Shown one piece after another: positions 20,809 through 58,647 of a stretch of DNA of 64,000 nucleotides. The notes below the pieces were generated by a model. It worked only from the letters and a program-made list of their open reading frames with translations, was not told the DNA's origin and did no database searches. Every line of letters begins with the position of its first letter. The stretch's first letter is position 1. The translations under genes and the position numbers were made by a program. Source of the DNA: Deltaproteobacteria bacterium (GTDB taxonomy: Bacteria; Myxococcota; JACPTQ01); the NCBI GenBank assembly GCA_016192705.1, contig JACPTQ010000072.1, positions 6,611 to 70,610 of the forward strand, read 5' to 3'.

Positions 20809-21952
20809 TCACCGCTTACCGATCGATTGGTTGAGTTTCATGATCGGCAAGACAACCGAAAAAATAATGAACCCCACGACGCCGCCCATCCCCACGATCA
20901 GAATCGGTTCAAGCAGTGACGTCAGCCCCTGAAGCTTCGCGTTCACCTGCGTTTCATAATGGTCCGCAACGTTGACGAGCATCTCCTCAAGCTGCCCGCT
21001 CCGCTCGCCGACGGCGATCATGTGCGTCACCATAGGCGGAAACTGCCCAGACCGCTTGAGAGGCTGCGCGATGCTCTCGCCCTCTTTGATGTTGTTGCGC
21101 GCATCGTCGATGACCGCCTCGAGCACCTTATTGTTCAAAATGTTTTTGACGATGCCGAGCGCCGTCAGCAGTTCGACACCGCTCTTTAGAAGCGTCGCAA
21201 GCGAGCCACCACCAGTCGCGCATGAAGTTCGAGACGCCGATGAGGATTTCCGTGGGCAGCGGTAAGTCGGTTTTGATGTGTTTGAAGATCGACATGAGTC
21301 GCGGCACAAGAACCGTAAACAGCAGCACAACGATGAGGCCGCCCAAAATCATCATGATGATGGGGTAGGTGAGGGCGCCCATCACCTTCGCACGCAGCTT
21401 GACCTGCTCTTCGGTGAAGTTGGCGAGGCGCGTGAGCACGAGATCGAGTGTTCCCGACGATTCGCCCGCGCGAACCATGTTGACGTAAAGCGGCATGAAC
21501 GTCTTGGGGTGGTCGCCAAGCGCGTTCGCGAGCGAGGTCCCTTCGTTGACGCGTTCGCGCACCTGCGCGAGGATCGTTTTGAAAAGTTTGTTGTCGGATT
21601 GATCGACGACAGCCGAAAGGGCCTCGACGAGCGGTAGTCCGGCGCCAAGCAGCGTTGCGAGCTGCCGCGTCATCACGGCGACGTCGCCCGCTGGAACGCG
21701 GCGCCGCTTAAAAGGGACAGAGACCTCGAACTCTTTTTTCGTGAGCGCCGCGAGCAAACCGCCACCCGCACCCGCCGCTCCAGCAGCCGCCCTTGCGCGG
21801 CCGCCGCCCGCACCCGCCGCCTCGGAAACCGCCGTCAAGAAAACGCCGTCCTTGCGCAGCACCTGCCTTAGCGCGCGCGCCGACTCAGCATCGCGCACCC
21901 CGGCGATCGCCTTTCCCTTTTCCGTCAACCCTTTGTATTCAAAAACTGGCAT
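20809..21952 (-). pseudogene. gspF: type II secretion inner-membrane protein GspF, disrupted by internal deletion of about 130 bp plus frameshift (or an assembly error)
   Basis: N-terminal 250 aa (MPVFEYKGLTEKGKAIAG ... LIGVSNFMRDWWWL) read in one frame and terminate at 21128. The C-terminal 134 aa (ATLLKSGVELLTALGIV ... FPPMVTHMIAVGERSGQLEEML ... LPIMKLNQSIG) are in another frame, 20809-21215. Compared with GspF/EpsF, about 45 aa (second TM segment and loop) are missing at the junction near 21205-21215, next to a tggtggtgg repeat. Confidence 0.75.
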
Positions 21953-22030
21953 TCAGTTCTTCTCAGTGTCTTCCTCTGTACCTTTGTGTCTCTGTGGTTG
22001 CATTTTCTTCTTCTTGTTCTTCTCTTCTGC

Positions 22031-23776
22031 CTACGCAACATCCTCCTGCGTCACGCGCATCACCTCCGAAATCGTCGTCACCCCCTGAACGACCTTGAGC
22101 AGCCCGTCGTCGCGCAGCGTCCGCATTCCACGCTGGATGGCGAGCTTCTTGATGGTGTTCGAGTCGAGCTTTCGCCGTGTCATGTCGCGCACGTCGTCGT
22201 CGATCATCATGAGTTCGTAAATCCCGACGCGCCCCACGTACCCGGAGTTAAGGCAAGCGGGGCAGCCTTTCTCACGAAACACCGTGAGCCCGGCGCTTTG
22301 ATTGGGATCGAGCCCAAGCTCGACGAGCTCCGCTTCGCTCGGCTGATACGGAACGCGGCACGCTTTGCACACGACGCGCACGAGGCGCTGCGCCAAGACC
22401 GCGAGAAGCGACGACGACAACAAGAACGGTTCAACGCCCATATCGATGAGTCGCGTGAGCGCCCCTGGCGCATCGTTCGTGTGAACCGTTGAAAAGACGA
22501 GGTGCCCCGTGAGCGACGCCTGAATCGCAATCTCCGCTGTCTCAAGGTCGCGGATTTCGCCGACCATGATGACATCCGGGTCGTGGCGTAAAATCGATCG
22601 AAGGCCCCCCGCAAAAGTGAGCTCAATTTTTGGGTTCACTTGGATTTGACTGACGCCCTGCAGCTGATACTCGACCGGGTCCTCGACCGTGATGATCATC
22701 TGGTCCTTCGTGTTGATTTTCGCGAGACACGCATAGAGCGTCGTCGTTTTCCCGCTGCCCGTCGGTCCCGTGACAAGCAGAATTCCGTGCGCGCGCTGGA
22801 TGAGTTCCTGCATCACCTTGTAATTGTCTTCCTGGAAACCGAGCGACGATAAATCGACGAGCACCGCCGACCGGTCGAGGAGGCGCATCGTGATTCGTTC
22901 GCCGTGCGACGTTGGCGCCGTCGCGACGCGAATGTCGATGTCTTTCCCCGCGAGTTTTATCCGAATGCGTCCGTCCTGGGGGAGCCGCTTCTCGGCGATG
23001 TTGAGCCCCGCCATGATCTTCACGCGCGACGAGATCGACGCGTGGTATCGCTTCGCGGGGCGCATGATCTCTTTCAACACGCCGTCAACGCGAAACCGCA
23101 CCGAGATGTCGCGCTCCATCGGCTCGATGTGAATGTCGCTCGCGCGGTCTTTCACCGATTGAAAAAGGAGCGAATTCACGAGGCGAATGATCGGCGCCTC
23201 TTCGTCAACGTCGAGAAGGTCTTGCGGTTCTTCGAGCTCGTGCGCGATGTTTTGGAGGTCGGCCCCTTCAAGATCGTCCATCGCCGCGTCGGTAACGCCA
23301 CTCTTCCGATCGAACACGCGGTTGATGGCGTCGAGGATCGTCTGGCCGGCCGCGAGAACCGGGCGCACCTCACGCCCCAAAATCGCGCACAAATCATCGA
23401 GTGGCGCCGTGTCGACCGGGTCCGCGCACGCAACCTCCACCGCTTCATCGACCCAACGCAACGGCAAAACGCGGTACTGTTTCGCATAGTTGATGGGGAT
23501 CGGCCCGACGACCTCCGTTTGAATCGCCTCGGCCGCGATCGCCTCGACAACCGGCAAGTCAAACTGCAGGCCGAGCGCATGGACGACGTCGGCCTCCGTC
23601 ACGGCCTTCATCCCAACGAGCAACTCGCCGAGTCGCCCCCCACGCTCACGCTGCAACGCGAGGGCTTCGTCGATTCGCGCGACCGTCGTTCGCCCGTGTG
23701 CAACCAGAATCTCGCCGAGCGGGCGCCCGACCCAACTTCGTTCCGCGCCCATCGCTCCAACCCGCATCGGCCTCAC
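22031..23776 (-). CDS. gspE: type II secretion ATPase GspE
   Basis: 581 aa; N1 domain, Walker A LVTGPTGSGKTTTLYA, Asp box, His box, and tetracysteine zinc motif CKACR...GCPACLNSGY. Start overlaps the gspD stop. Confidence 0.9.
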   Translation of the reverse strand: MRPMRVGAMGAERSWVGRPLGEILVAHGRTTVARIDEALALQRERGGRLGELLVGMKAVTEADVVHALGLQFDLPVVEAIAAEAIQTEVVGPIPINYAKQYRVLPLRWVDEAVEVACADPVDTAPLDDLCAILGREVRPVLAAGQTILDAINRVFDRKSGVTDAAMDDLEGADLQNIAHELEEPQDLLDVDEEAPIIRLVNSLLFQSVKDRASDIHIEPMERDISVRFRVDGVLKEIMRPAKRYHASISSRVKIMAGLNIAEKRLPQDGRIRIKLAGKDIDIRVATAPTSHGERITMRLLDRSAVLVDLSSLGFQEDNYKVMQELIQRAHGILLVTGPTGSGKTTTLYACLAKINTKDQMIITVEDPVEYQLQGVSQIQVNPKIELTFAGGLRSILRHDPDVIMVGEIRDLETAEIAIQASLTGHLVFSTVHTNDAPGALTRLIDMGVEPFLLSSSLLAVLAQRLVRVVCKACRVPYQPSEAELVELGLDPNQSAGLTVFREKGCPACLNSGYVGRVGIYELMMIDDDVRDMTRRKLDSNTIKKLAIQRGMRTLRDDGLLKVVQGVTTISEVMRVTQEDVA

Positions 23777-26553
23777 TCCTCCCCATCATCGGTGACCACG
23801 AAACCTTCGCGCACCGGCGGGTCGGCCTTCGGATCGGGAACGCCCTTCGTTTCGCCGCCCTTCACGGGTTTGCCGTCCGGCCCAAGCAGCGGCGCTGGGC
23901 CCTTCTTCTTCTTTTTCTTCCCCTTCAGTTCGTCGCGCTTGTCTTGGGCCTCCTTCGCCTCCTTGTCCATCCGCTCCTGGTCGCGAATCGCCTCCTCGAA
24001 CTTCCCGCCGTACTGATTCACCTCTTCGAGCGGCCCGTGTTTTTTCCCGTAGTCGACCGTGAACGGCGAATCGATCCCAGCCTTCGAGAATTTTTCTAAA
24101 AACTCTTGCCGCTCCTGCATTTTCTTCTCGAAGATGCGTCTAAAATCCTGCGGCGTTCGAATGATGTGGGGCGTCAGGAAGATGAGAAGATTGGTCTTCG
24201 CCATCCGATTGTTCTTCTTGCGAAAGAAGAACCCGAGCACAGGGATGTCGCCGAGAATCGGGATTTTCGACGACCCCTCCGAAACGATGTTCTTCATGAG
24301 CCCGCCCACGACGATCGTGCTCCCGTCTTTCACGATCACCGTCGTCTTGACCGTCCGCTTCGTCGTCTTCGGTTGATTCGTCGTCGGCTCGACTGCACCG
24401 AGCTCCGAGATTTCGTTGTTGACGTCCATCGTAACGTACGACGATTCGTTGATCCGCGGCTTGATGCTCAGTTTCAGCGACACGTCTTCGCGGGTGACGC
24501 TCGTCGTAAGGAGTCCCGGCAGTCCTCCGGCGGCTCCGGCGAGCGCGCCGAGACTCGTCGTTGCGCCGCTGATGAACGGCACTTTTTCGCCGACCGTGAG
24601 CTCCGCGTCTTTGTTGTCGGTCGCGAGGATGTGCGGCGTCGACAAGACGTTCGTGTCCTGGTTCGACTGGAGAAACTGCAAAAACGCACCGAACGATGGA
24701 ATCCCGGTGCCGAGGCTAAACGTGCCGGTGGTGCTCGTCGTTGTTGTTGACGAGCCGAGCGCGCCGGTTGTTCCTGGGACGTCGGGTCCGCGCAGAATGG
24801 CGCCGAATCCCGTGAGCGCCGCCGGCGTCAAGAACAGCGTGTCGGCCGGATTGTTCCCAAACATGAGCGGAACGGTCTGCCCATTGACGCTGAAACCCTT
24901 GCCGCCAGTAAACGAAACTTTCTGGTCCTTTTGGCGGTCGATCGCGACCTCCATGATAACCGTCTCAACAAAAACCTGGTTCCGCCGCATGTCGAGTTTC
25001 GCGATGATGTCTTTGAGCGCGCGGTAATCTTTTTCGGTGCCGATGATAATGAGCGAGTTCGTCGCCTTGTCGGCCGTGATCTTGAGCTCGCCCTCGAACA
25101 GGCTGGCGCCGGCAGCCGCCCCTTTTGCGCCCGGCGCTGTTGGCGGCCTCGGACCTGTTTTTGCGCTTCCGGCCGCGAGACTCGCGAGAACGGTCGCCAT
25201 CTCCTCGGCCTCGGCGTTTTCGAGGTAATGAACGCGCACGCGTCCTTCGCCACCCGGGAGCGGAATGTCGAGCTCTTTGATGAGTTGCACAACTTTGCTG
25301 TACGCACGGTCTTGCGCAACGATGATCAGCATGTTGGTGCGTTCATCGGAAATGATTTTCGACACGCGAACATCCTCGTCGGCCTCGGGCGGCAACATCG
25401 CGGGCGTCGTTCCGGGTGTTGGCGGAGGTTGTGGAGCCGGTGGCGGCGGCGGACGACCGGGCGTTGGCGGTGCGTGGGGCGTGACCGGTTGCGCCTGACC
25501 GCGCGGTTTTTTCCCAGACTTGTCGCCAAACAGCTCGTTCAGTTTCGACGCGATGTCGCTCGCCGTTGCGTGCTTGATCTTGCGCAAGAAGATCCGCTCG
25601 CGCCCACCGGTCGGCACGTCAAGCCGTTCGATAATCTTCAAGATGCGTCGAATGTTCGCCGCGGTGTCAGACAGAATCAACGTGTTCGTTGGAGCGTACG
25701 GCGTCAAGTCGGAGCCGCGGCCCTTCAACTTATTGATAACGTTTTGAATCTCGGCGAGCTCGACGTGCTTGACCGGGATAAGCCGCGTCAGGAAGCGGTC
25801 GTCGTCGGGCACCGGTTCCTTGTCGGGCAGCGTCGTGATCGGCATTTGATTCGCGTCGCGCTGCTCGACAAGCTTCAAGTAGTTTCCCGACGGCACGACG
25901 GTGAGTCCGTTCACCTCGAGCGCCGAAAGGAACGCCTTCCACGCCTCACCGATACGAACTTTGCGCGGCGAGAATATTGAAATCTTTCGGCCTTTGACCT
26001 TCTCAGTCAGGATGAAGTTCTTGCCGGTAAGGTCTGAAATCCACTTAACAACCGCCTCGAGATCCTCTTTCGGCAAATCGAAGCTGAACGCGACGTTCTT
26101 CGGGAATTTTGGGTTGTGCTTAATGTTCTTTGGGTAGTCGGTTTCTGGCAGCGGCCCGCCTGACGACGGCGCGGGGATTGGCGGTCCACCGGCCTTGGCG
26201 TCGCCGGGCTTTTTCGCAGGCACTGCGGTTGTTGCGGCCGCTTTCGCATCGCCCTTGCCGGGCCGTGGCGTAAGGCTCCCAGGTTTCTTCAAATCTTTTG
26301 GTGGAACGAGCGGAATAACAGGATCTTTTTTCCTTGTCGCCTCGAGCACGGGCGCTGCCTTCTTCTTAAAACGCTTCCGTGGCCGCGCCGGTTCTTCATC
26401 CTGCGCCTGTGCTGAAATTGAAAAAGCGAGGACGGGGAGTAACCACAGAGGCGCTGAGATTCGGAGATTGGAGGAGGCTGAAAACCTCTTTCTCTTCCGA
26501 CCTCTCTCACTCTGCGTCTCTGTGGTTTCTCTTCTATCTTCCATCTCTCTCAT
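23773..26553 (-). CDS. gspD: type II secretion secretin GspD with long Lys/Pro-rich N-terminal extension
   Basis: Start taken at MREMEDRR... (ATG 5 nt after an AAGGTGG SD that sits 11 nt after the upstream stop). Signal peptide ...LWLLPVLAFSISAQA|QDEE, N0-N3 domains, and C-terminal secretin domain (VPILGDIPVLGFFFRKKNNRMAKTNLLIFLTPHII). The ORF-track N-terminal 33 aa overlap the upstream PDZ coding sequence and are discarded. Confidence 0.85.
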   Translation of the reverse strand: MREMEDRRETTETQSERGRKRKRFSASSNLRISAPLWLLPVLAFSISAQAQDEEPARPRKRFKKKAAPVLEATRKKDPVIPLVPPKDLKKPGSLTPRPGKGDAKAAATTAVPAKKPGDAKAGGPPIPAPSSGGPLPETDYPKNIKHNPKFPKNVAFSFDLPKEDLEAVVKWISDLTGKNFILTEKVKGRKISIFSPRKVRIGEAWKAFLSALEVNGLTVVPSGNYLKLVEQRDANQMPITTLPDKEPVPDDDRFLTRLIPVKHVELAEIQNVINKLKGRGSDLTPYAPTNTLILSDTAANIRRILKIIERLDVPTGGRERIFLRKIKHATASDIASKLNELFGDKSGKKPRGQAQPVTPHAPPTPGRPPPPPAPQPPPTPGTTPAMLPPEADEDVRVSKIISDERTNMLIIVAQDRAYSKVVQLIKELDIPLPGGEGRVRVHYLENAEAEEMATVLASLAAGSAKTGPRPPTAPGAKGAAAGASLFEGELKITADKATNSLIIIGTEKDYRALKDIIAKLDMRRNQVFVETVIMEVAIDRQKDQKVSFTGGKGFSVNGQTVPLMFGNNPADTLFLTPAALTGFGAILRGPDVPGTTGALGSSTTTTSTTGTFSLGTGIPSFGAFLQFLQSNQDTNVLSTPHILATDNKDAELTVGEKVPFISGATTSLGALAGAAGGLPGLLTTSVTREDVSLKLSIKPRINESSYVTMDVNNEISELGAVEPTTNQPKTTKRTVKTTVIVKDGSTIVVGGLMKNIVSEGSSKIPILGDIPVLGFFFRKKNNRMAKTNLLIFLTPHIIRTPQDFRRIFEKKMQERQEFLEKFSKAGIDSPFTVDYGKKHGPLEEVNQYGGKFEEAIRDQERMDKEAKEAQDKRDELKGKKKKKKGPAPLLGPDGKPVKGGETKGVPDPKADPPVREGFVVTDDGEE

Positions 26554-26702
26554 CACACCCACCTTCACTGGATCTGGTAGTTCAACTTCTTTTTCGTGCC
26601 ACCGCCCGAAAGTTCGATCTGAATTGAGCTCGCATCCTTGAGCCGCCGCCACGCGTCGAACGCCTTGTCGGGGCTATCGATGTCCTCGCCGTTTATTCGT
26701 CG
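26384..26702. repeat. direct repeat copy 1 (about 320 bp, about 95% identical to copy 2): PDZ 3' half + 11-nt SD-containing intergenic + signal-peptide coding 5' end
   Basis: Aligned by eye with 26956-27274. Period 572 bp. Lower-identity paralogy continues on both sides. Confidence 0.85.
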
Positions 26703-27125
26703 AATCACGTCGCCGCTTTTGATTCCAAGCTTCGAAAAAAGACTCTCCGGCCGAACGCTAAACACTTTGATACCCACGGTTTTAGCCCTTTCAAAATAGA
26801 GGGCGACTCGCGGGCACGGCGTGAGTTGGCCCTCTTTGGAGGGTTCGGAAAGCAACTCCTGCCGGGAGATAACGAGATTGGCTTGCGAATCGTTTCGGAT
26901 GGTCTTACGGGATAACGTTTTTGGCAGATGTTTCTTTTGATCTTGTTTTCTCGGTCGCGCCGGTTCTTCATCCTGCGCCTGCGCCGAAAACGAAAAAGCC
27001 AGGACGGGGAGTAACCACAGAGGCCCTGAGATTCGGAGATTGGAGGAGGCTGAAAACCTCTTTCTCTTCCGACCTCTCTCACTCTGCGTCTCTGTGGTTT
27101 CTCTTCTATCTTCCATCTCTCTCAT
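26565..27125 (-). CDS. chimeric GspC-like PDZ protein carrying the GspD-type cleavable signal peptide (predicted soluble periplasmic PDZ paralogue)
   Basis: Start MREMEDRR... with the same SD and spacing as gspD. Signal peptide LWLLPVLAFSFSAQA|QDEEPARPRK is nearly identical to the GspD N-terminus. It is followed by a short linker and a PDZ domain whose C-terminal half (GDVIRRINGEDIDSPDKAFDAWRRLKDASSIQIELSGGGTKKKLNYQIQ) is nearly identical to the GspC C-terminus. No TM anchor or HR domain. Confidence 0.6.
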   Translation of the reverse strand: MREMEDRRETTETQSERGRKRKRFSASSNLRISGPLWLLPVLAFSFSAQAQDEEPARPRKQDQKKHLPKTLSRKTIRNDSQANLVISRQELLSEPSKEGQLTPCPRVALYFERAKTVGIKVFSVRPESLFSKLGIKSGDVIRRINGEDIDSPDKAFDAWRRLKDASSIQIELSGGGTKKKLNYQIQ

Positions 27126-27274
27126 CACTTCCACCTTCACTGGATCTGGTAGTTCAACTTCTTCTTCGTGCCGCCGCGCGAAAGTTCGATCTGAATTGAG
27201 CTCGCATCCTTGAGCCGCCGCCACGCGTCGAACGCCTTGTCGGGGCTATCGATGTCCTCGCCGTTTATTCGCTG
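26956..27274. repeat. direct repeat copy 2 of the gspC-3'/gspD-5' junction segment
   Basis: Partner of 26384-26702. Confidence 0.85.
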
Positions 27275-28102
27275 AATGACGTCTCCGTTCGTGATGCCGA
27301 TCTTCGAATAGAGGCTTCCCGGCCTGATGCTAAACAACTTGAACCCCGCGCCCTTACCCCCTTCAAAGTGCGGGACAATTCGGGCTTCCGTCGCGAGCTG
27401 GTTTAGGTTCGAGAGCCGATTCTGAACCTCCTGACGCGTGATGACGTAATCGCTGTCTGAAAGTTTTTTGATGTTCTTGTCGTCGACGGCGGTTGGTGTC
27501 CCTTCGCTCGCCGAAATCGTTGGCGGCGACGCGGCCGCTCGTGCCGCGCGCGCGCGTTTTGCCTCGTCGTCCATCGCTTCGAGTTTTTCGCGCTTGCCTC
27601 CCTGCTCAAGAATCACAGTGGGTCGCGGCCACCGATCGATTTCAACGATGGTCCACCCCTGAATGGCGCTTCCCATTCGATACAGCTCCGCTTCGGCGTT
27701 TGGAGCGGCTTTGTCTCGAATCGCCGCGAACGACCACGCAGGATTTTGCGCGACGATGGTGCCGACCAACTCCGCGTTCAGCTTGCTGTCTTGAACGTCG
27801 CCTTCCTTTTGTGGCACCAGCGCCGAACCCGCATCGGGCGGTGCTGTCGCGGCTTCGTACGAGTAACTCGAATTGAAAATGTTCGTCTTCAGGAGAGGCA
27901 TCGGATCTTTGCGGACATTTCGCGGCGCGGAAACAACGGGCAGCGGTGCCGGAGGATCGCCCGAAGCTGGCGCCACCGTGAGTGCGCGTTCGATCCAGCT
28001 CGATGCGCCCCAGGAACCGACGAGGGCGCCGAGCGAAACGACGCCGACGTTGACAACCCAAAAGTAGCGCTTAAGAACGGTTTGAAGGGTGGGCAGAGCC
28101 AT
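27137..28102 (-). CDS. gspC: type II secretion protein GspC (TM anchor, HR domain, PDZ domain)
   Basis: 321 aa; N-terminal TM (YFWVVNVGVVSLGALVGSW), Pro-rich linker, HR-like region (LVGTIVAQNPAWSFAAIRD...YRMGSAIQGWTIVEIDRWPRPTVILEQGGKREKLE), and C-terminal PDZ (FKLFSIRPGSLYSKIGITNGDVIQRINGEDIDSPDKAFDAWRRL). First gene of the gsp operon. Confidence 0.7.
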   Translation of the reverse strand: MALPTLQTVLKRYFWVVNVGVVSLGALVGSWGASSWIERALTVAPASGDPPAPLPVVSAPRNVRKDPMPLLKTNIFNSSYSYEAATAPPDAGSALVPQKEGDVQDSKLNAELVGTIVAQNPAWSFAAIRDKAAPNAEAELYRMGSAIQGWTIVEIDRWPRPTVILEQGGKREKLEAMDDEAKRARAARAAASPPTISASEGTPTAVDDKNIKKLSDSDYVITRQEVQNRLSNLNQLATEARIVPHFEGGKGAGFKLFSIRPGSLYSKIGITNGDVIQRINGEDIDSPDKAFDAWRRLKDASSIQIELSRGGTKKKLNYQIQ

Positions 28103-28277: not shown

Positions 28278-31200
28278 CTAAGGAATCCGTTTCACGAAGA
28301 CGGCCGTATTGTTCGAGCATCTCGCCGCTTCAAAGCGCCCCGCGGGAACTCTCTTGCGGTAAACGCCCCATGGATGGTTATCCGACGCGCGATAGATCGT
28401 CCCCACCTTCGTCCAACCGCCGCCTGGAGGCTGACACTTGGTGTGGTCGTACGCATCGGTGTGATAAACGATCGCCGGCTCAGTGAGCGTAAAGACTGGC
28501 GGAACCCCGGAGCCACCCTGAATGAGAACGCTCCCCTCCATTTCCGGGAGCAGATTCTTTATCGGCTCAAGGTTGGAGCGGTAAATAAACTGCCTGCCCA
28601 CCGGATTCTCATGCGGCCCCGCAATCGCCGGCACCACGTCTCGGACGAGTCGGGAAGCGAATCCTGACGGCCACCCCGCTCGCTGCGCCGTGACGCCGTA
28701 CTTAAACTCGCTGAGGTTCGGCTTTTGCGCTTGTTGAAGGTTCGAGAATCTCCCCTCGAGCGAGTTCGCGGAAACCGTGAGCCGGTACCACTGCCACCAG
28801 CCGGGGCTGACCCGACGGAGCTCCAAGACCCGCGTGGCCGGGTCGAAGCTCACCGAGTCGATATTCTCGCGCCCAGCGCCCCCAAAGCGCAGGTCGAGTT
28901 GATACCCGGATCCGGCTCGCGCGATCTCGAGATCGAACCTGTGGTTGTTCGCGTTGCCTTGCCACTTACCCGCGGGGTCGACGACGGGACTCTGGGATGT
29001 CGCGGCAGGCCCTTGTGCCGCCGCACCCGCCGCCTTGACCGCGTCCTCCGCAGCCACGCTGGTGCATTTGACGACGGCGCCGAAGGTTGCGCCCACGTTT
29101 CGCGTGAGGTTGTTCTCACAGCAGTCGGACGCCTTTCTGACGAACGTGTCGCGTCCGGCGCTCGCGACCTTACCGATGGCCGACTTCAGGTCGCTCACCC
29201 CCGGAACACCGCGCATTCGCGCGTCGCCAAAAAACGCATCGACCGCTTTGAGTCCGTCGTCGGCTGACGAAATCGTTCGGTTCAACGCCTTTCGGTACTC
29301 GGAGCACGCAAAGACCTTGAGCGCCTCGCCCGCCGCGGCGTTCAGTGACTCCGCGAGGCACTCGGTCGCATTCTTGAGCATGCCGCTGAAATTGGCGCTC
29401 CCGCCACAGCTCGGCTTGCACTTGGGGTTCGACTCGAGTTCGTTCGCGAACGTCGAAAACCCAGTGTCGGTGAGCGTCGCGACCTTGTCGCGCAAGTCTT
29501 TCGGGAATCCGAGCTTCACGGCGCTCGCAAGCTTTTCGATGTTATCGACGACCGCACCTTTGAGCGTTCCCGAGCGCGCCTCATTCGCGATCCAGCGCAC
29601 AGTGCCGTCGTACGCTGCCGCCGCGAGCGCCGTCCCCGCGCACGATCCGGCCTGGCTCACGAGCGCGCCCCAATCGACGTTCGCCCCGATGTTGAGCTTC
29701 GAGCCGTCGGCGCCGATGCAGCTCTCGAGGCACTGTGACATCGCCGGAATCCCGTACCGTCCGATGTTCGCTCCCACGCCCTTCAGCATGTCTGGCAGGT
29801 TGACGCTTCCCGCGCCCCCGAAGTTAAGCGAAAAATTGAGCCCCGCGTTCTCGAAGAAGCCAGCGAGATTCGCAAACTGCAACCGGAACGTCTCGCCTTC
29901 GCCGCGGGCGGCATCGACGACCTTCATAAGCGCTTCTTTGACGAGCGCGTTTCGGCCAACAATGAGCGCGCTCTCGGCTTCTCGCCTTAGGCACGCGACG
30001 ACGCCGGTCACGAACCGGTCGAACGCGCCCCTCCAATCGTTCCCTTCGAACGCGAGATTTACGCACGCCGCGCGGATCTGAAGGCCGAACTTCTCGACCG
30101 CGGCGCCCGAAGCTTTATCAAGCATTGCGGCCACATTGAAGTCGCCCGGAATCGCCCGACCGAGCGCGCCGAAGAGCGAACTGAGGCCGCCTTTAATTGC
30201 GCCAAAACCAAGACCAGAAAAGGCATCCAGCGCGCCCGCCGCAAGGCCGATTTGTGCCCCAACGCCGAGGCAATTGAAGAGGTTCTCAAGGAACTTTTTG
30301 ATCCCTTCACCCTTGCCAATGTCGCGTGTGACGCTTGAGCAGACCTGACCCACGAATCGTCCAAACACGGCCGCGCCGGCGTCGAGCCCACTCTTCAAGA
30401 GCTCGTCGAGTTTCCCGGGGAGTGCGGGAAACGAAAGCTTAAATCCGCCGAACGAACCCACGAACGCGCCCCAAGCCGCGTCGAGGCCGGACTTCGAGGT
30501 TGCGCCCTTCGCGATTTCAGCGACGGCGCTGACGATGGTCGACTCCTGGAGTGCGTTCAACGCGACGGGTCCGATGCAATCAAAGACCTCCTTCGCGAGT
30601 GCCGCGACGTCGCCACCTTTGAGCTGCTTGTTGCCGCAACTTAGCCGAAGCTCAACGCCAAATCGCCTGCCACTTTCCGTCGCAATCTTGCCCGCGAACG
30701 TCATCAGGTCGGGCGGCATTCCGAGTCCCCACGCGCCAAAGACGTCTCCGAGAAACTTGATCCCGTCGCCGAATCGGTTGGATTCCTTCTCGGCGAAATC
30801 GGCAAGCCTTTGGACCGCGGCCAAGATGAGATCGCCCGGCCCATACTCCTTCTGCTCCGTGATCGCCCCGAGCTTGCGAGCCGCGTCGCGCAGCTTGTCG
30901 AGCGGGATGACCGCGCCGACACCTTTGCAAAGCGCCTTGAGCGGTTCGCTGAGAACCGGTCGAAGGGCGTCGAACGACTGGTTCAAGAGCGGCTTCAGGA
31001 CGAAGTTGCGCACGAGTTCCTTGGCGCCTGGAATGCGGATGTTCACGACCGGGATCGCGGTGCCGTCGAATACAAAGTCGCTGACCTTTTCCGCGATGAG
31101 CGGCGCAAGGAAGGTATCGTGAAGCGCGTTAAGCGCAAAATGAGACAGAACCCCGGCGACCGGGCCGAGAAGGGCGCCGACGCCACCGAGCGTCGCACCT

Positions 31201-34200
31201 GCCGCGGCTACGGCCTGCGTGATCATGGCGACGAGGGGAGGGTAGATCGTCTTCGTCACCACGGGGAGCTTCAGCACCGCTTCGACGAAGCCGCTCACGA
31301 TCCCGACGAGTGCGGGTCGAAGCATGATGGCCGCTTGGTCGAGGAGCGCATCGATGAGCTTATTCACCGCGTCGGCGATGGCCTGCGTTTTTCCGCCAGG
31401 CGAGGTCATCGCCGCGAAGGGGTCTGGGCAAAGGCCGGTGACGGTCTCGACGATCTTTGCGAGACTGCTGACGATATCGAGAATTTTTCCTGCGCCTGTA
31501 AAGAAGTCCTTTACATCTTTAAAAACAACGCGAACCCTCGGCGGCACGAGTCCGCAAACCGGTTCAATCGCCGAAACCTTTGTTTGCCCCGCAAGGCAAT
31601 CGATCGCGTTCTGCCCGAGCGCGGTGATGAGCCGGCCGACGGGGCCCGTCACGGCGCTGTAAATCTGATCGAGGACGGGCGAGACGATCGTGTCAAACGC
31701 GTCGGAAATCGCTCGCTTTACTCCTTCGGCTATCGGTACGCCATACTGGTCCCAGAGCGCCTTCGCGGAGTTTCCGACGAAGTCGATCGCGTTCTTTCCA
31801 AGGTCGACGACGTACGTGACGGCGCCGACGGCGGCTTGCCCCATCGCCTGAAGCCCGGCGGTCGTGAATTCGCCGACCTTCGCGAATCCGTCGCCGATCC
31901 CTTTCGCGAGACTCCCGCCTTCGACCATGACGTCGCTCATCGCGCTGTTGAACGTGCTCATCGCCGCCTGCGGATCGCTAAACATCTGCCCGACGCCGTT
32001 CGAAACTTTGCCGACCCACTTCCCAAATTTTTCCCACGGCGGCGCCTTGGCATCGGCCTCGCGGCGCGCCTGTTCTTCAAGCGCTCGTCGCCGATCGTCA
32101 GCGGCCTTTGACGCTTTCGTCAGCGCCTCCTGCGCGTTCGCGCAAAAGTCATCGTAACGTTTGTCGCCGTCCGCCAAGAGGGACCTTATTTGCTCAAAGC
32201 CGGTGCAGTTCTTTTCCTTGGCGGTCAGGTTTTTCGGGAAACTGAGCGATGGCAAAAAGTCACCTCTTCCCGATCCTTTGCACCGACTTGAGATTTGGCT
32301 AAGCGTATCGTCGGCGTCTTTCCTATTGCCACTGCCGAGGTGACGCATCGCGGTTTCCACATCGATCCTGATAATTTCGAAGCTGAACCAGAGTGTGCCC
32401 TTAGCCACGTCGTGGCAGTCGTTGAGGCGCGCGGCCGTTTCATCGAACTCCTTTGTTTTCGCCTCGACGAGGTTGGTGACGATCTGTCTCGCGCTTGAGT
32501 AAACCGTGTTAAGCACGACCGTGACGGGGCTCACCATGGCCCCGGCGCAAGGCCCGTCCTTTTTCGAGAACTGCGTGAGAACATGTTTCCCGAGAGCCTC
32601 GATGGTCTTTGCAAATTCTCCCTGGCCGTTTTCAACCCATTTCCCAAAGTCGCTCGCCTTCTCAAAAGGGAATCGCGAGAACGGCGGTTCAAAAACAGCG
32701 CGAAACTTGGCGAGCCCCTGTGAGATGCAGGCGTTTTCTTTCATCCAGAGTACGGTGCCGGCGGTGCTATCGAGGTTGCTCTCGGAAACAAACTTTCGTC
32801 GCGCGTCGGCGGTGGCGAAATGGTTTCGCAGCCCTTGCGGGCCGCCGCCGCCCACGCCGTCGTCGAGCAACTTTCGCATGAGCGTGAGCGCGCGGTTTGG
32901 ACGCGTGCCGCTCGGGTGCTCCGGCAATGTCGGATTCATCAAGTAGCCGGCGATCCCGGGATAATTGGCGCGCAATTCGGCGGTTGCCACGAAGATGAGC
33001 GACTTCACCGCCTCGCCCTTAAGGCGTTCGAGCTCGGCGCCAATCCCGAGCTGACTCAAGAAATAACCACGCTTCTCGCGCACCGACTTTTCGAGTTTCG
33101 CCGGGTCGTTCGCGCCTTTGCACCAGCCCCACATCTCCTTGATGACGGTGCGGAGCGGCGATGCGCGACTCGGATCGCTCGCGTCGTCGAAGAGCAGCAT
33201 GCCAGCGATCGATGGATAGTGGTCGAGCTCCGTCGCGAATTCACGACGAAGAGCGGCGATGGCGGCGTCACGATTGGGACTTCCGACCTTTAGTTTGTCG
33301 AGCAGGGAGCCCTGCTCTTGCGTTAGCTTTGCTCGGACGTTTGCGGCGTCCAAGCGTTCAGTGGACGAAAACCGGCGGAGCAGCGCCTTAAAGAACGGGT
33401 TCCCAGAACTCGTAACCGCCGGAATGATTTGCGGCGAACACGTGATGGCGTCCTTGAACACCGTGAGAAGCGACGAACGAACAGTCTCTTCGCGCAACCG
33501 AACGTATTCCGCTTCAACTTTGTCACTCACCGGCTTTTCCAGGAGCGGCGCGATGAAGTTCGCAAGGTTCCGGCTCTGTGGAATCCGTCTTTGGTCTCGC
33601 GACGAAATGATCTGCCAATCGGCGGGCGTGAGTTTGACGTTGCTCGTCTTCGCGAGCGCCGTTTTCAGCAGGTCGGATGATGGGTCTTTGAAGATCGCGC
33701 GAAGGCCGGGCTCCACTTTGGTGTAATGGAAATACGCAAGGTCGAGGGCGTTGACGATTTCGAGCCCGTCGATGCACTTCGATAGCGCGACCGCAACCTG
33801 GTTCGGGTCTTTGTTAAACCCGAACTTTGGGAACTGGCGTTTGATCGCCGCGTAAAGGACCTCATACCGTTCGTTGACGCAAAGCCGCTCGCGTTTGAAA
33901 ACATCGAGTCCTGTTTCGGTCAGCGCTCGAATCAACTCGGACTGCCTTGACCAGTTGCCTCGTATATCCTGCTCCCATTTGCCTGGCGGCGACGTCCGTA
34001 TCCAATCCGCGGCGGCCTGAACTACGCGGCCGTTCGGATGAACGGCGGCGCCAAGCACGGTTGGGAAGTTCTGCCGAACGATCGGAAAGAGACTCGCAAT
34101 CACTTGCCCCGCATACAATCGCCGCAATTTGTCGAGCTCGCCAAAGATCGCCTTGAATCCAGGGAAGCCGGTCTTATTTGCCTTGAGTTTCTCAAAAAGC

Positions 34201-35249
34201 TCGTCGCGTAAAACTTGTTCGGGCGATATGATCTGGCCGGACCTGCGGGTCACTGGGCCGCCCACTTCGAAGTCGTTGAACCGTCCCCGCCCCGACCCCG
34301 TAGGTTTTTTTAGCTTGGTGAATGAGGCCACAACGGCGTCGATGGCGGCGCGCATCGGAACTCCGTTTGGGTCGAGAAGGACCGGCCGCAGTTTGTATCC
34401 GACGGAGCTGTCTTCGTCGGCATAGACGAGCGGAAGGACTTGGCTCGCGACGGACGGCGCGTAGCAGCGAGCGACCGCAGCTTTGATCGCAGGGGTCCAG
34501 TCGACTTCTTTCATCCGCGACTGAAGACGCACGAGAACCTGGCGTTCGCGTCCAGGTCTGACAACGATTGGTTCCTGGAGCCGGCGCGCGAGGATTTCCG
34601 GGAGCTCTGTTTGCCGCGTCGCCTCGATGGCTTCGACGACGATCGCGCAACCGCCGATCGACGCGGGCAGACTGCCCATATAGATGTTGATTGCCTGACG
34701 CTGTGCCGTGAGGGCGATCCGCTCAACGTCCGCGAAGGTGAGTTTTTCCGCGACCATCTCGGCTTCGATTTCGTCGATCCGCTCCTTGGGGGGTGCCGGT
34801 GCCCTCGCGGCCCCCGCTCCATAGAAAACACGACGAAGGACGCCCCACTCGATGAGGTTGCGCCGCATCTTCGAGTCGCTCTGCAGCTCCTTGATGAGCG
34901 CCGTCATGATTGGAGCCACGGAGAGGTCTTGGCCGAACCCCGGGACGTTGGCGAGCGCTTTTTTCCACCGTTCAAACTCCCGCGGATCGGGCTCTCGTCC
35001 TAAGACAGTCTTGTAGGCGTACGCGGTGTTTCGACAGATGGTGCTTTCATTGTTTGGAGCGCACCCCGTGGTCGTCGCGCGCGTAAGCGCACGGCACGTG
35101 TCGTGTGTGTGCCAGGCGCACCAATCGGCGGCGCGGTCAGGTTTCCGCTGCGCTTGCACAGACGCTGGCACCGACCAAGCGAGCAAGAACGCCGGCATAA
35201 CGAGTCTGGCCATCCGAGTTTTCCACTTAAAACGTGCTGCAAACCGCAT
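28278..35249 (-). CDS. giant secreted protein (2323 aa), mostly alpha-helical/low-complexity, no recognised catalytic domain
   Basis: Uninterrupted 6.97-kb ORF directly upstream of, and co-oriented with, the gsp operon. N-terminal signal peptide (MARLVMPAFLLAWSVPASVQA). Cys-rich N-terminal module with a LGREPDPxEFERW motif, then long A/G/L/K-rich helical regions. Shares short motifs with the 828-aa protein at 52404-54890. Confidence 0.6.
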   Translation of the reverse strand: MRFAARFKWKTRMARLVMPAFLLAWSVPASVQAQRKPDRAADWCAWHTHDTCRALTRATTTGCAPNNESTICRNTAYAYKTVLGREPDPREFERWKKALANVPGFGQDLSVAPIMTALIKELQSDSKMRRNLIEWGVLRRVFYGAGAARAPAPPKERIDEIEAEMVAEKLTFADVERIALTAQRQAINIYMGSLPASIGGCAIVVEAIEATRQTELPEILARRLQEPIVVRPGRERQVLVRLQSRMKEVDWTPAIKAAVARCYAPSVASQVLPLVYADEDSSVGYKLRPVLLDPNGVPMRAAIDAVVASFTKLKKPTGSGRGRFNDFEVGGPVTRRSGQIISPEQVLRDELFEKLKANKTGFPGFKAIFGELDKLRRLYAGQVIASLFPIVRQNFPTVLGAAVHPNGRVVQAAADWIRTSPPGKWEQDIRGNWSRQSELIRALTETGLDVFKRERLCVNERYEVLYAAIKRQFPKFGFNKDPNQVAVALSKCIDGLEIVNALDLAYFHYTKVEPGLRAIFKDPSSDLLKTALAKTSNVKLTPADWQIISSRDQRRIPQSRNLANFIAPLLEKPVSDKVEAEYVRLREETVRSSLLTVFKDAITCSPQIIPAVTSSGNPFFKALLRRFSSTERLDAANVRAKLTQEQGSLLDKLKVGSPNRDAAIAALRREFATELDHYPSIAGMLLFDDASDPSRASPLRTVIKEMWGWCKGANDPAKLEKSVREKRGYFLSQLGIGAELERLKGEAVKSLIFVATAELRANYPGIAGYLMNPTLPEHPSGTRPNRALTLMRKLLDDGVGGGGPQGLRNHFATADARRKFVSESNLDSTAGTVLWMKENACISQGLAKFRAVFEPPFSRFPFEKASDFGKWVENGQGEFAKTIEALGKHVLTQFSKKDGPCAGAMVSPVTVVLNTVYSSARQIVTNLVEAKTKEFDETAARLNDCHDVAKGTLWFSFEIIRIDVETAMRHLGSGNRKDADDTLSQISSRCKGSGRGDFLPSLSFPKNLTAKEKNCTGFEQIRSLLADGDKRYDDFCANAQEALTKASKAADDRRRALEEQARREADAKAPPWEKFGKWVGKVSNGVGQMFSDPQAAMSTFNSAMSDVMVEGGSLAKGIGDGFAKVGEFTTAGLQAMGQAAVGAVTYVVDLGKNAIDFVGNSAKALWDQYGVPIAEGVKRAISDAFDTIVSPVLDQIYSAVTGPVGRLITALGQNAIDCLAGQTKVSAIEPVCGLVPPRVRVVFKDVKDFFTGAGKILDIVSSLAKIVETVTGLCPDPFAAMTSPGGKTQAIADAVNKLIDALLDQAAIMLRPALVGIVSGFVEAVLKLPVVTKTIYPPLVAMITQAVAAAGATLGGVGALLGPVAGVLSHFALNALHDTFLAPLIAEKVSDFVFDGTAIPVVNIRIPGAKELVRNFVLKPLLNQSFDALRPVLSEPLKALCKGVGAVIPLDKLRDAARKLGAITEQKEYGPGDLILAAVQRLADFAEKESNRFGDGIKFLGDVFGAWGLGMPPDLMTFAGKIATESGRRFGVELRLSCGNKQLKGGDVAALAKEVFDCIGPVALNALQESTIVSAVAEIAKGATSKSGLDAAWGAFVGSFGGFKLSFPALPGKLDELLKSGLDAGAAVFGRFVGQVCSSVTRDIGKGEGIKKFLENLFNCLGVGAQIGLAAGALDAFSGLGFGAIKGGLSSLFGALGRAIPGDFNVAAMLDKASGAAVEKFGLQIRAACVNLAFEGNDWRGAFDRFVTGVVACLRREAESALIVGRNALVKEALMKVVDAARGEGETFRLQFANLAGFFENAGLNFSLNFGGAGSVNLPDMLKGVGANIGRYGIPAMSQCLESCIGADGSKLNIGANVDWGALVSQAGSCAGTALAAAAYDGTVRWIANEARSGTLKGAVVDNIEKLASAVKLGFPKDLRDKVATLTDTGFSTFANELESNPKCKPSCGGSANFSGMLKNATECLAESLNAAAGEALKVFACSEYRKALNRTISSADDGLKAVDAFFGDARMRGVPGVSDLKSAIGKVASAGRDTFVRKASDCCENNLTRNVGATFGAVVKCTSVAAEDAVKAAGAAAQGPAATSQSPVVDPAGKWQGNANNHRFDLEIARAGSGYQLDLRFGGAGRENIDSVSFDPATRVLELRRVSPGWWQWYRLTVSANSLEGRFSNLQQAQKPNLSEFKYGVTAQRAGWPSGFASRLVRDVVPAIAGPHENPVGRQFIYRSNLEPIKNLLPEMEGSVLIQGGSGVPPVFTLTEPAIVYHTDAYDHTKCQPPGGGWTKVGTIYRASDNHPWGVYRKRVPAGRFEAARCSNNTAVFVKRIP

Positions 35250-43444: not shown

Positions 43445-43660
43445 GGGTGCGTAAAAACGCCCGCCGCGCGCTCCGGTTGGCTCCGCAGCTCCGCGCTCGC
43501 AGACCTTTTGGTCTGCTCGCTCTTCGGGCGTTTCGATGATCTTACGGAGAACCGAAAATCTCAGATGCGCCCTCAGAGTCGCTGCTGCACCAACCGTGCG
43601 CGCGGCGGGCGTTTCAGCCGCCCCCAGGGGCTTCAAAAGGGCATCTCCGCACCCTGCTAA
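43445..43660. other. nested inverted repeats (about 215 bp) in a convergent intergenic region; candidate bidirectional terminator or structured RNA
   Basis: Outer gcagggtgcg / cgcaccctgc; second layer acgcccgccgcgcgc / gcgcgcggcgggcgt; third ccggttgg...gcagc / gctgc...ccaaccg; inner hairpin gcagacc-tttt-ggtctgc. Confidence 0.35.
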
Positions 43661-44130
43661 CGGCGTAACGCGCGTCGAACGTTCCGCTCCGCCTCGCGCT
43701 TCGCGGTTGCTTCACGTTTATCGAACTGCTTTTTTCCCTTCGCCAAAAAGAACTCGACCTTCGCGCGGCCATCTTTGAAGTAGAGTGCTGTCGGAATAAG
43801 CGAGAAACCTTTTTCGGCGACATCGCGCGCCAGTCGATGCAGTTCTTGGCGATGCACCAAGATTTTTCGCGCGCGAAGCGGCGTGTGGTTGTTGTACGTC
43901 GCGTTCGGGTACTCGGCAATGTACGAGTTCACGAGAAAAAGTTCGCCACGTTCAATCGCCGCGTAAGAGTCGGTGAGGTTCGCCTTGCCATCGCGAAGCG
44001 ATTTCACTTCGCTCCCCGTGAGCACGAGCCCGCCCTCGTAGGCTTCGCTCAAGAAATAGTCGTGCCGCGCCTTGCGGTTCACGCAAACGATCTTCTCGCC
44101 CTGCTTTGACGGCGGTTCCTTAGCGCCCAC
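43657..44130 (-). CDS. smpB: SsrA-binding protein SmpB
   Basis: Strong match to SmpB (GEKIVCVNRKARHDYFLSEAYEGGLVLTGSEVKSLRDGKANLTDSYA...ILVHRQELHRL...FSLIPTALYFKDGRAKVEF). GTG start chosen at 44130 to give the expected 158 aa; the ORF-track start is further upstream and overlaps the MITE. Confidence 0.8.
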   Translation of the reverse strand: MGAKEPPSKQGEKIVCVNRKARHDYFLSEAYEGGLVLTGSEVKSLRDGKANLTDSYAAIERGELFLVNSYIAEYPNATYNNHTPLRARKILVHRQELHRLARDVAEKGFSLIPTALYFKDGRAKVEFFLAKGKKQFDKREATAKREAERNVRRALRR

Positions 44131-44181
44131 GGGGCGAGTCTGCCTGAACTGTGCGGTCTGCGTCCAGGGTTCGTGCGATTT

Positions 44182-44729
44182 CCTCGATCCCCGGATAAGC
44201 AGCCAGTTTTCTTCCTTACGTAGGGTCGGCAGGTGCCGCTTCGGCGCGCCGACGTCCTCGGGTCTGAACGGACTCGCGCGACAGAGCCGCTGTTCAGAGG
44301 TAAGCGAAAGCTCGGTGATCCCAGCCAATATTGCGCTGCAGACCCTGCGGAGGCGCGCCTATGCGAGCCTCTGCCGACCCCACGCAAATCCGGGCGGACC
44401 GCTTTCCGGAGACGCTTTTTCTGGGCTTGAGGGCGGTTCGAAGAGTTCACCCGCTGGGTATCAGCTGACGATCGATCGACTCCCAAGTCTCTGAACCGAG
44501 GGTTCTGGGAAACGGCTGGTTTCTGCTTGGGCGGGCGGGGATTGGGTGAGCGGCGGCTCGCGTCCGCAGGGGATGAGGTGCCGATGGGGCGTGGGATTGC
44601 CGTTCTCATGACGCTTGGTTCATTTCGTACAGACTCACATTTCATGTCAGACCCGAGGACTTCCGCGAGCCGGAGCGAGCCCAACCCCGACCGCCCCACT
44701 GAAGTCTTCTCCGTTATCCGGGGATCAGG
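44182..44729. mobile_element. MITE-like non-autonomous element, copy 1 (548 bp) with 16-17-bp terminal inverted repeats and 9-bp target-site duplication GTGCGATTT
   Basis: Ends CCTCGATCCCCGGATAAGC ... GCTTATCCGGGGATCAGG (imperfect inverse complements). Flanked by gtgcgattt at 44173-44181 and 44730-44738. No ORF with transposase features inside. About 90% identical to copy 2, with indels. Confidence 0.6.
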
Positions 44730-44771
44730 GTGCGATTTGCGGCGTCGCGCGATCGCGCGTAACATCCGCAA

Positions 44772-48654: not shown

Positions 48655-49168
48655 TCCTCGATCCCGGGATAAGCGGCCAGTTCGCTTCTGTGCGTAGGGT
48701 CGGCAGGAGCCGCTTCGGCGCGCCGACGTCCTCGGGTCTGAACTGACTCGTGCGACAGAGCCGCTGATTAGAGGCAAGCGAAGGCTCGGTGATCCCAGCC
48801 AATATCGCGCTGCAGACCCTGCGGAGGCGCGCCTTTGCGGGCCCCTGCCGACCCTACGCAATTCCGGGCATACCGCTTTCCCGGGGACATTTTTCTAAGG
48901 CTTGAGGGCGGCACGAGGAGCTCACCCGCTGGGTGTCGGCTGATGATCGATCGACCCCCAAGTCCCTTAGCCGCCGTTTCAGGAAAACGGCCGGGTTCTG
49001 GTATCCGCAGGGGATGAGGTGCCGATGGGGCGTGGGATTGCCGTTCTCATGATGTTTGATTCGTTTCGGACAGACTCACATTTCATGTCAGACCCGAGGA
49101 CTTTTGCGAGCCGAAGCAAGCCCAACTCCGACCGCCCCACGCTGGTCTTGGCCGTTAATCTGGAATCA
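48654..49168. mobile_element. MITE-like element, copy 2 (about 515 bp), 9-bp target-site duplication GTGTAAGTA; right terminal repeat degraded
   Basis: Starts gTCCTCGATCCCGGGATAAGC; flanked by gtgtaagta at 48645-48653 and 49169-49177. Colinear with copy 1 apart from a roughly 30-bp indel and substitutions. Confidence 0.6.
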
Positions 49169-49178
49169 GTGTAAGTAA

Positions 49179-57672: not shown

Positions 57673-57676
57673 GCGG
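57484..57676. repeat. direct repeat A (3' end of the cytochrome gene), about 93% identical to 58648-58840
   Basis: Aligned by eye. The two copies bracket the hydrolase gene; period 1164 bp. Confidence 0.85.
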
Positions 57677-57731
57677 GAGCCCACGTCCACGCCGTTGATG
57701 ATGAGCCCGTCGGACGCGCTATAATGGCGCG

Positions 57732-58622: not shown

Positions 58623-58647
58623 ACGAACCGCGACGAGCGGTGGATGG

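Follow-up and report, generated by a model that had tools for sequence, protein, structure and literature searches.

The 64,000-nucleotide stretch analysed here (the window; contig JACPTQ010000072.1, positions 6,611 to 70,610 of the forward strand) comes from a single short-read metagenome-assembled genome (MAG) of a Deltaproteobacteria bacterium assigned to the Myxococcota. It contains, on its minus strand, a type II secretion system (T2SS) operon in the order gspC, an extra open reading frame (ORF), gspD and gspE. As far as the assembled sequence goes, comparison of the junctions shows that a 572-bp tandem duplication, running from gspC codon 204 to gspD codon 68, arose in this lineage and that it created a third gene between gspC and gspD, in which GspD residues 1-68 are fused to GspC residues 204-321. 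By the same comparison, a 326-nt core of the duplicated segment was recently or repeatedly homogenised with the parental junction by gene conversion, whereas the middle of the new gene drifted: a motif preceding the PDZ domain was lost, the N-terminal half of the PDZ domain was conservatively changed and the GC content at third codon positions (GC3) went down. The extra gene is a GspC-derived PDZ protein gene born of a boundary-spanning tandem duplication, and not a new system.

A chimeric gene at the gspC/gspD junction

The repeat at the gspC/gspD junction was the longest one within the window. The repeat search returned it as a direct-repeat family (26360-26659 and 26932-27231; 300 nt, 93% identity, spacing 572), and base-by-base comparison of both 572-nt units refined it to a core of 326 nt, whose copies are 95.4% identical with 15 differences. 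This agreed well with the original prediction, made from the sequence, of two direct copies of ~320 bp, ~95% identical and 572 bp apart. The core holds perfectly identical runs of 93 and 103 nt and its edge is sharp, identity rising there abruptly from ~70% to 100%; the remaining 246 nt of each unit are 58% identical. As had been proposed, each core copy contains the C-terminal half of a PDZ domain, a stop codon, an 11-nt spacer with an AAGGTGG site and the 5' end of the next gene, the latter being measured as ~56 codons.

The two units lie head-to-tail with zero spacer, and two parents explain the chimeric junction, as in a tandem duplication. The length of the unit sums exactly (354 + 3 + 11 + 204 = 572 nt), and gspD codons 1-68 plus gspC codons 204-321 give exactly 186 codons, as in the extra ORF. 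Since these composite lengths match exactly, no insertion or deletion (indel) has occurred in either unit since the duplication. The reconstruction from composite parents thus fitted the predicted anatomy of the chimera (a GspD signal peptide joined in frame to a GspC linker and PDZ), and the gene coordinates of the original prediction, including a gspD that starts within core copy 1, were all correct. The new junction is in frame because gspD lies in frame +2 relative to gspC and 572 equals 3n+2. Both breakpoints fall in lysine/proline-rich linker sequence. Just outside the near-identical tract, codons 57-60 (RPRK) match gspD in protein and carry a synonymous change in all four codons.

Table 1. 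Coordinates of the features at and around the duplicated junction
Feature	Position	Strand	Description
gspC	27137-28102	-	321 aa; NCBIfam GspC_delta (NF041515) 282 bits, cut-off 150; Pfam T2SSC and PDZ_2 matches
Extra ORF (chimeric)	26565-27125	-	186 codons; from the ORF list
gspD (secretin)	23773-26553	-	926 aa from ATG 26553; TIGR02517 516 bits; Pfam N0, Secretin_N, Secretin
gspE	22031-23776	-	type II secretion operon gene
Shine-Dalgarno AAGGTGG of extra ORF	27131-27137	-	5 nt before ATG; read from sequence
Shine-Dalgarno AAGGTGG of gspD	26559-26565	-	duplicate of the extra-ORF site; read from sequence
Duplication unit 2	26932-27503	-	572 nt: gspC codons 204-321, stop, spacer, extra-ORF codons 1-68
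Duplication unit 1	26360-26931	-	572 nt: extra-ORF codons 69-186, stop, spacer, gspD codons 1-68
Core copy 2	26952-27277	-	gspC PDZ C-half, TGA, 11-nt spacer, extra-ORF codons 1-~56
Core copy 1	26380-26705	-	extra-ORF PDZ C-half, TGA, 11-nt spacer, gspD codons 1-~56
Diverged middle segment (Y)	26706-26951	-	gspD-derived codons ~57-68, GspC-derived linker, degenerate pre-PDZ motif, PDZ N-half
Signal peptide of extra ORF (predicted)	26976-27125	-	residues 1-50; read from sequence
PDZ of extra protein	26568-26813	-	residues ~105-186; AlphaFold pLDDT (predicted local distance difference test) 84-93 for residues 111-186
Hairpin, core copy 1 (gspD 5' coding)	26429-26539	-	~110 nt, imperfect; minimum free energy -45 kcal/mol, z -3.7, 0/200 shuffles fold as well
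Hairpin, core copy 2 (extra-ORF 5' coding)	27001-27111	-	less stable; minimum free energy -41.6 kcal/mol, z -1.7

In NCBI, the gspC product is named only 'hypothetical protein' (MBI3074169.1) and the extra ORF is the hypothetical protein HYY84_18835 (MBI3074168.1), 219 aa long from a GTG lying 99 nt upstream, which places it over the 3' end of gspC. The ATG behind AAGGTGG is, to judge by its setting, a far more plausible start, because the frame has no ATG, GTG or TTG closer to the hydrophobic region (h-region) of the signal peptide. The gspC stop codon ends in the first A of this AAGGTGG. The longest reading frame of gspD likewise opens at a GTG 99 nt 5' of its ATG (959 aa), and the annotation of its start could suffer from the same upstream-GTG problem.

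The N-terminus of the extra protein has, by inspection, what a Sec type I signal peptide calls for (a charged n-region, an h-region of 7-15 residues, small residues at -3/-1): a charged n-region of 33-35 residues ending in RGRKRKR..R, an 11-residue h-region LWLLPVLAFSF and an AQA↓QD site. Two residues separate it from the signal peptide of gspD (A34G, I46F), and the A-x-A↓QD site is common to the GspD of the nearest relative (see below). The extra protein would be exported and cut at A50↓Q51, and its mature N-terminus would be QDEEPARPRKQDQK.

The original prediction held that this protein has neither transmembrane (TM) anchor nor HR domain, and both points stood. A profile search for the HR domain (Pfam PF11356 T2SSC) gave no match, nor did one for the GspD N0 domain (PF21305). 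No TM segment was found: the sole hydrophobic stretch is the 11-residue LWLLPVLAFSF followed by AQA, whereas GspC has a 28-residue TM helix. On GspC_delta, the extra ORF aligns only to profile positions 175-311, with its C-terminal 137 residues (110.3 bits, cut-off 150), and on TIGR01713 it scores 35.6 bits against a cut-off of 101.6, so that the cut-offs of the GspC families are not reached. The predicted PDZ domain was seen in the modelled fold and was borderline in the domain profiles. With a 26-sequence alignment, AlphaFold modelled the PDZ confidently (Table 1), and its first Foldseek matches in the PDB were 2i4s and 2i6v (EpsC PDZ) and 5hj1 (PulC PDZ). PDZ_2 (PF13180) gave 26.6 bits and PDZ_6 (PF17820) 25.7 bits, just under the threshold of 27; the true gspC scored lower still (24.2). 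The GspC_delta-type PDZ clade thus sits at the Pfam gathering threshold.

In the model of the extra protein, the N-terminal 75 residues are disordered, a low-confidence hairpin and short helix occupy residues 77-92, and a break with pLDDT below 50 follows at residues 96-101. The GspC model has a TM helix at 14-41, an HR domain at 110-176, a confident pre-PDZ hairpin with two helices at 211-239, and the PDZ at 241-320 with pLDDT ~90. The pre-PDZ motif LSNLN..A.(Q/E/K)ARIVP.F, invariant in 25-36 aligned GspC homologues, is replaced by LLSEPSKEGQLTPCPRVALYF in the extra protein. The last 43 residues show one difference from the GspC of the window. In general, the binding groove of a PDZ domain is made of strand beta-2 and helix alpha-2. 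Here the alpha-2 half, which falls within the conversion tract, is the same as in GspC, and the beta-2 half, which falls in Y, carries conservative changes. For this reason, the extra PDZ should bind the same partners as the GspC PDZ, or very similar ones.

Divergence, selection and distribution

Divergences at synonymous (dS) and nonsynonymous (dN) sites were computed by the Nei-Gojobori method on codons aligning without gaps. As an outside reference we used the nearest relative, locus L002 from JGI sample 3300045072, whose GspC is 92% identical in amino acids to that of the window. In the C-terminal half of the PDZ (codons 144-186), the extra ORF and gspC differ by a dS of 0.08 and a dN of 0.01, whereas the gspC genes of the window and of L002 differ by a dS of 0.91. 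The synonymous sites of this segment are therefore free to vary, and the low dS between the two copies indicates that the core was homogenised within the genome by gene conversion. In the diverged middle (codons 83-143), the extra ORF and gspC reach a dS of 1.26 and a dN of 0.37, against 0.54 and 0 for window gspC versus L002 gspC. The tract thus lies far below both its own flank and the orthologue, as in gene conversion. The original prediction had left a choice between gene conversion and strong constraint on the core. The first part was supported by these values; the second, a constraint on protein or RNA, was rejected since the same segment varies against the L002 orthologue. The contrast between core and middle also bore out the proposal that the duplication is not a very recent one. 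That proposal rested on PDZ N-halves about 65-70% identical; we found 70-73% nucleotide identity over codons 111-140 and lower values further upstream.

How old the duplication is can be read less firmly. Unique nucleotide changes numbered 57 on the extra-gene branch, 9 on window gspC and 6 on L002, and the branch of Y has a dS of ~0.6 versus ~0.24 for window gspC. On these values, Y seems to predate the divergence from L002. Two histories fit: the duplication came before that divergence and the lineage of L002 has since lost it, or Y evolved faster; only ~45 synonymous sites enter the comparison.

Selection on the extra gene was weak. Y and gspC differ at 90 of 225 nt, with zero stops and zero indels; at this divergence, 8% of random-substitution replicates remain stop-free. 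On the extra-gene branch, the dN/dS ratio (omega) was 0.38 in the PDZ N-half (p=0.03), and the invariant core residues of the PDZ are kept, with conservative changes such as GFKLFSIRP to GIKVFSVRP. Taken together, the substitution pattern indicates that constraint on the extra gene is relaxed, with the PDZ fold still under some purifying selection.

The arrangement was described in the original prediction as unusual, and this was supported. Among 1.84 billion representative proteins, the only matches at E<1e-30 were the extra protein and its own GspC, so that the extra protein is without orthologue in this set, and rare. At L002, gspC is directly followed by gspD and the extra gene is absent. 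A scan of metagenomes with a GspC alignment gave 80 loci, and a scan with the extra protein as query gave no matches. In a tblastn census of these 80 metagenome and 13 genome GspC_delta loci, a second PDZ between gspC and gspD was found only in L035; ~95 related GspC_delta loci were without the extra gene, L035 being the one exception in the census. The genome scan returned no close relative, its best matches being 28-37% identical, and the literature searched describes neither PDZ-only nor N0-PDZ genes for T2SS loci. The only analogues that we encountered are independent ones (L016 and the L035 type).

At L035, a 249-aa protein (607-1356) encoded between gspC and gspD starts with a signal peptide, followed by a GspD N0 domain (PF21305), then a linker and lastly a GspC-type PDZ. 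It belongs to a family of five members (P0274-P0278), hereafter SP-N0-PDZ, of which the other four are 41-46% identical to the L035 protein, P0274. Members also sit between gspC and gspD in L099 (1409-2218; NCBI MAG JAFGRB010000076, JXR96_05525, MBN2494029.1, 'hypothetical protein') and outside T2SS loci in L100-L102. These proteins are 241-269 aa long and exported by prediction; compared with adjoining genes, their N0 is 29-41% identical to GspD and their PDZ 45-68% identical to GspC. The family is, judging by its sequences, old, evidently arose by the same kind of junction duplication and shares no descent with the window gene. It seems undescribed. We noted that the member in L100 (5001-5738) adjoins a gene with a guanylate-cyclase domain, and that a PilZ gene lies nearby in both L100 and L101 (5001-5726).

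The other analogue, L016 (P0081; ENA ERZ27313774, k141_958931), is a 748-nt contig with the 3' end of gspC and its stop, a spacer and a chimera of 177 aa, in which a GspD-type signal peptide plus ~45 residues is fused to a GspC linker and PDZ. This PDZ is 92% identical to the ordinary GspCs of that lineage. The gene downstream opens with a different signal peptide, and the single short contig is possibly an assembly chimera, so that L016 is weak evidence for an analogous chimera.

Several other candidates were rejected. P0170 is a GspC without HR domain in which the TM helix is kept. P0004 (L103; ENA ERZ1292636, sample 'Hain_PNK108') had at first sight the look of one more rearranged relative. 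It is a low-coverage contig of 771 nt, and the ~245 nt of PDZ that it carries match the gspC of this lineage (~90% identity) and have unrelated DNA on either side, with an ATPase_gene1-like ORF; the contig is probably chimeric. PDZ matches upstream in L030/L031, L057, L062 and L066 were not junction chimeras; they are tandem gspC-like paralogues or remnants upstream of gspC. As an observation in its own right, several Myxococcota-type T2SS loci have, immediately upstream of gspC, another gspC-like gene that is shorter and diverged. The copy in L062 (2201-2944) is complete and comprises an N-terminal hydrophobic segment, a region resembling HR and a PDZ; that in L057 (78-677) has the HR-like region and the PDZ and no N-terminal hydrophobic segment; L066 (53-574) has a shorter gspC-like ORF, and L030/L031 (L031 3692-4354) only a truncated remnant.

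Proposed role and alternative explanations

How T2SS machines choose their cargo is poorly understood, and the PDZ domain of GspC is among the few elements tied to substrate specificity. For the extra gene, the following scheme can be proposed. It would be co-transcribed within the gspC-D-E-F operon (a search for terminators between gspC, the extra ORF and gspD revealed none that was convincing) and would be translated from its own copy of the strong AAGGTGG site. The protein would be exported by Sec via the signal peptide of the secretin and cleaved at AQA↓QD, yielding a soluble periplasmic protein of ~136 residues made of a ~55-residue basic, disordered tail and a GspC-type PDZ. Having no TM helix, it would not be tethered to the inner membrane, and having no HR domain, it would not be tethered to the secretin; according to one report (PMC3169554), the HR domain ties GspC to the N0 domain of GspD. 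Its PDZ would still bind the partner or partners of the GspC PDZ, and the protein may then work in trans, as a holder of PDZ-dependent cargo or as a competitor for it. In V. cholerae, the purified EpsC PDZ pulls down a cargo determinant, that is, an isolated PDZ binds cargo, and the GspC PDZ is required for just one known substrate (PMC12369372). By analogy, the SP-N0-PDZ family and L016 may be taken as a precedent for the persistence of untethered, exported GspC-type PDZ proteins. On balance, we lean towards the extra gene being a young, weakly selected accessory paralogue that acts in trans on PDZ-dependent cargo.

Several observations weigh against an accessory role. On the extra-gene branch, omega reaches 0.61 for codons 83-143 (p=0.10) and 1.27 for the pre-PDZ segment, and gspC has a dN of 0 over these same codons 83-143. 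GC3 is 0.59 in Y and 0.72 in the corresponding stretch of gspC, a drop that relaxed selection would lead one to expect. The family-invariant LSNLN..A.ARIVP is replaced by LLSEPSKEGQLTPCPRVAL, which adds three prolines, and the pre-PDZ helices, confident in the GspC model, are lost or of low confidence in the extra protein. The n-region of the predicted signal peptide is unusually long (33-35 residues). The gspF of the same operon looks frameshifted or deleted; the T2SS may be decaying or the assembly locally imperfect. The extra gene is moreover without orthologues in the protein set searched. Finally, the evidence for the arrangement rests on one MAG, and the only other assembly of the population, Logan contig L001, does not confirm it: over 7.2 kb, L001 matches the window at 99.945% identity, and it ends inside the repeat at 27131, one base before the next copy-specific variant.

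Many of these observations would fit a neutral by-product, an account that we hold to be possible though unlikely. The duplication would be real and the protein functionless. The ORF would stay open because conversion keeps its two ends like the functional parents, and because an early stop or a frameshift would upset polarity or translational coupling onto gspD; it would be a tolerated spacer that drifts to loss. The overall omega of ~0.6, its rise in the pre-PDZ segment, the loss of family-invariant residues and the decay in GC3 all favour it, as do the zero orthologues, the lack of the gene in the nearest relative and the possibly broken gspF; with 8% of replicates stop-free, an open frame is moreover not strongly improbable. 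However, the omega in the PDZ N-half and the conservative replacements in the core point to constraint on the protein itself, and a divergence of 40% without a single indel also speaks for the protein, as do the analogous chimeras conserved elsewhere. Tandem repeats near-identical over 326 nt should be prone to loss by unequal recombination, and their persistence for as long as Y took to diverge suggests retention by selection. A different history, in which the duplication was very recent and the diverged middle was then imported by recombination from a distant gspC allele, giving a horizontal mosaic, we regard as quite improbable. Y behaves as an outgroup, with a dS of 1.26 to window gspC and 0.94 to L002 gspC versus 0.54 between those two, and L002 is without the extra gene, both of which favour an import. 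Yet the nearest known sequence to Y is this genome's own GspC; the gspD-derived codons 57-68 are old and diverged too, so that the import would have had to carry a pre-formed chimera; and the lower GC3 fits drift in situ. Dating on ~45 synonymous sites is imprecise in any case.

We then considered whether the arrangement is real. Strain variants may have been threaded serially through the repeat, or the duplication may be present in a sub-population only, the dominant genome having a single junction. The source is a short-read MAG, and three of the four mismatches of L001 are copy-1 variants within gspC's copy of the core; together with the end of L001 inside the repeat, this shows that the assembly graph is tangled there. 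The possible local error in gspF and the existence of a chimeric low-coverage contig from this lineage (L103) go the same way. Searches for exact copies of the extra protein, in its 186-aa and its 219-aa form, and of GspE returned no record, and hence no second assembly of the junction. Against this, Y must join the core on both sides, and its 5' junction from signal peptide to linker could stem from no normal gspC or gspD allele, nor was any other source of Y found in the databases searched. Past the near-identical tract, codons 57-68 are still GspD-like with synonymous changes, and the signature at codons 57-60 reflects old homology, since GspD-like residues with synonymous changes are unlike a k-mer mis-join. 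There are 15 differences between the core copies, and a clean in-frame duplication of 572 nt accounts for the unit length. The duplication thus appears real in this assembly and an assembly error unlikely; artefact or population heterogeneity strikes us as improbable.

A natural, untethered periplasmic copy of the PDZ, with its gene in the operon itself and half tied to GspC by conversion, would test whether PDZ-cargo binding needs the machine or works in trans, and the locus is a clean case of gene birth by boundary-spanning duplication. The independent N0-PDZ chimeras suggest that the route was used more than once, and that family raises the possibility that untethered PDZ proteins of the GspC type are a genuine class of T2SS accessories, so far undescribed. 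A tentative and rather doubtful extension is that junction duplication is a recurrent route, in T2SSs of the Myxococcota type, to soluble Sec-exported PDZ-only or N0-PDZ accessory proteins whose action in trans would concern cargo selection or the contact between GspC and GspD. If this is true, the window holds a young member still homogenised with its parents, the N0-PDZ family represents the mature state, and the proteins form a previously unrecognised class of T2SS components.

Neighbouring features and relation to known systems

The ~110-nt hairpin within the core (Table 1) codes for both the n-region and the h-region of the signal peptide. The motif on its 5' arm, AACCACAGAGAC, set in purine-rich sequence, turns up again between gspE and gspF at 21988-21999 (-), and the motif has 6 matches with at most one mismatch in the window versus 0.12 expected. 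An Rfam scan of the whole window gave zero matches at gathering thresholds; at E<=1, the core gave only far-sub-threshold matches resembling miRNA precursors, which reflect the long hairpin shape and no family. The hairpin was rejected as a conserved regulatory RNA, since the orthologous region of L002 has a z of -0.15 against shuffles and copy 2 is weaker than copy 1.

After gspE, the operon continues with gspF, G, H and I, another minor-pseudopilin-like ORF, K, an L/PilM-like gene and gspN. The gspF gene is split into two overlapping minus-strand ORFs, 21128-21952 (GspF profile positions 1-226 of 401) and 20809-21330. Residues ~232-280 of its homologues (~50) have no counterpart, and the frame shifts near 21203/21204. 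This is either a real deletion and frameshift inactivating the T2SS platform protein, or a local assembly error. Directly upstream of gspC lies a 2323-aa ORF (28278-35249, minus strand) with an N-terminal signal peptide and no Pfam domain. It is missing at the orthologous position of L002, where genes for a cNMP-binding regulator and a metallo-beta-lactamase-fold phosphodiesterase abut gspC, and it may be a lineage-specific T2SS cargo.

Two other repeats were noticed in the window. A segment of ~550 nt occurs twice (44181-44731 and 48655-49172; 88% identical, with a 34-nt indel, 4.47 kb apart) and holds no convincing ORF; its first copy adjoins smpB (43657-44328). It had no Rfam match at E<=1, and ARAGORN found no tmRNA or tRNA in it. 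A structured RNA not yet described is one possibility, the remnant of a mobile element another. A direct repeat of 221 nt (57460-57680 and 58624-58844; 92%, spacing 1164) comprises the 3' end of an 861-aa ORF (55087-57672, plus strand) with several CxxCH haem-binding motifs, and recurs just after a 296-aa ORF (57732-58622). This is another boundary-spanning duplication in the same genome.

As a duplication, the gspC/gspD repeat resembles generic gene-converted tandem duplicates in its head-to-tail repeats, its abrupt switch from ~60-70% to 95-100% identity and its homogenised synonymous sites. What sets it apart is a unit that reaches across the border between two genes. The conversion tract thus links the 3' end of the first gene, the translation signals and the 5' end of its successor, and a new chimeric ORF results. 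Like the extra ORF, the SP-N0-PDZ proteins combine the N-terminus of GspD with a PDZ of the GspC type, and in L035 and L099 their genes lie between gspC and gspD. Their breakpoint, however, lies after N0, so that N0 is kept, whereas the window protein has only the signal peptide and ~18 mature GspD residues. Most of them (P0274-P0276) retain the pre-PDZ motif, which the window gene has lost, and some have moved out of the T2SS locus. L016 has the same layout as the window chimera, but belongs to a different Myxococcales lineage and has a different breakpoint. With GspC, whose kin studied by experiment are EpsC, OutC and PulC, the extra protein shares the PDZ fold and a C-terminus of 137 residues that aligns to GspC_delta. 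GspC has in addition a TM anchor and an HR domain, in place of which the extra protein has a predicted cleavable signal peptide, and the pre-PDZ motif LSNLN..A.ARIVP, present in GspC_delta, is lost in the extra protein.

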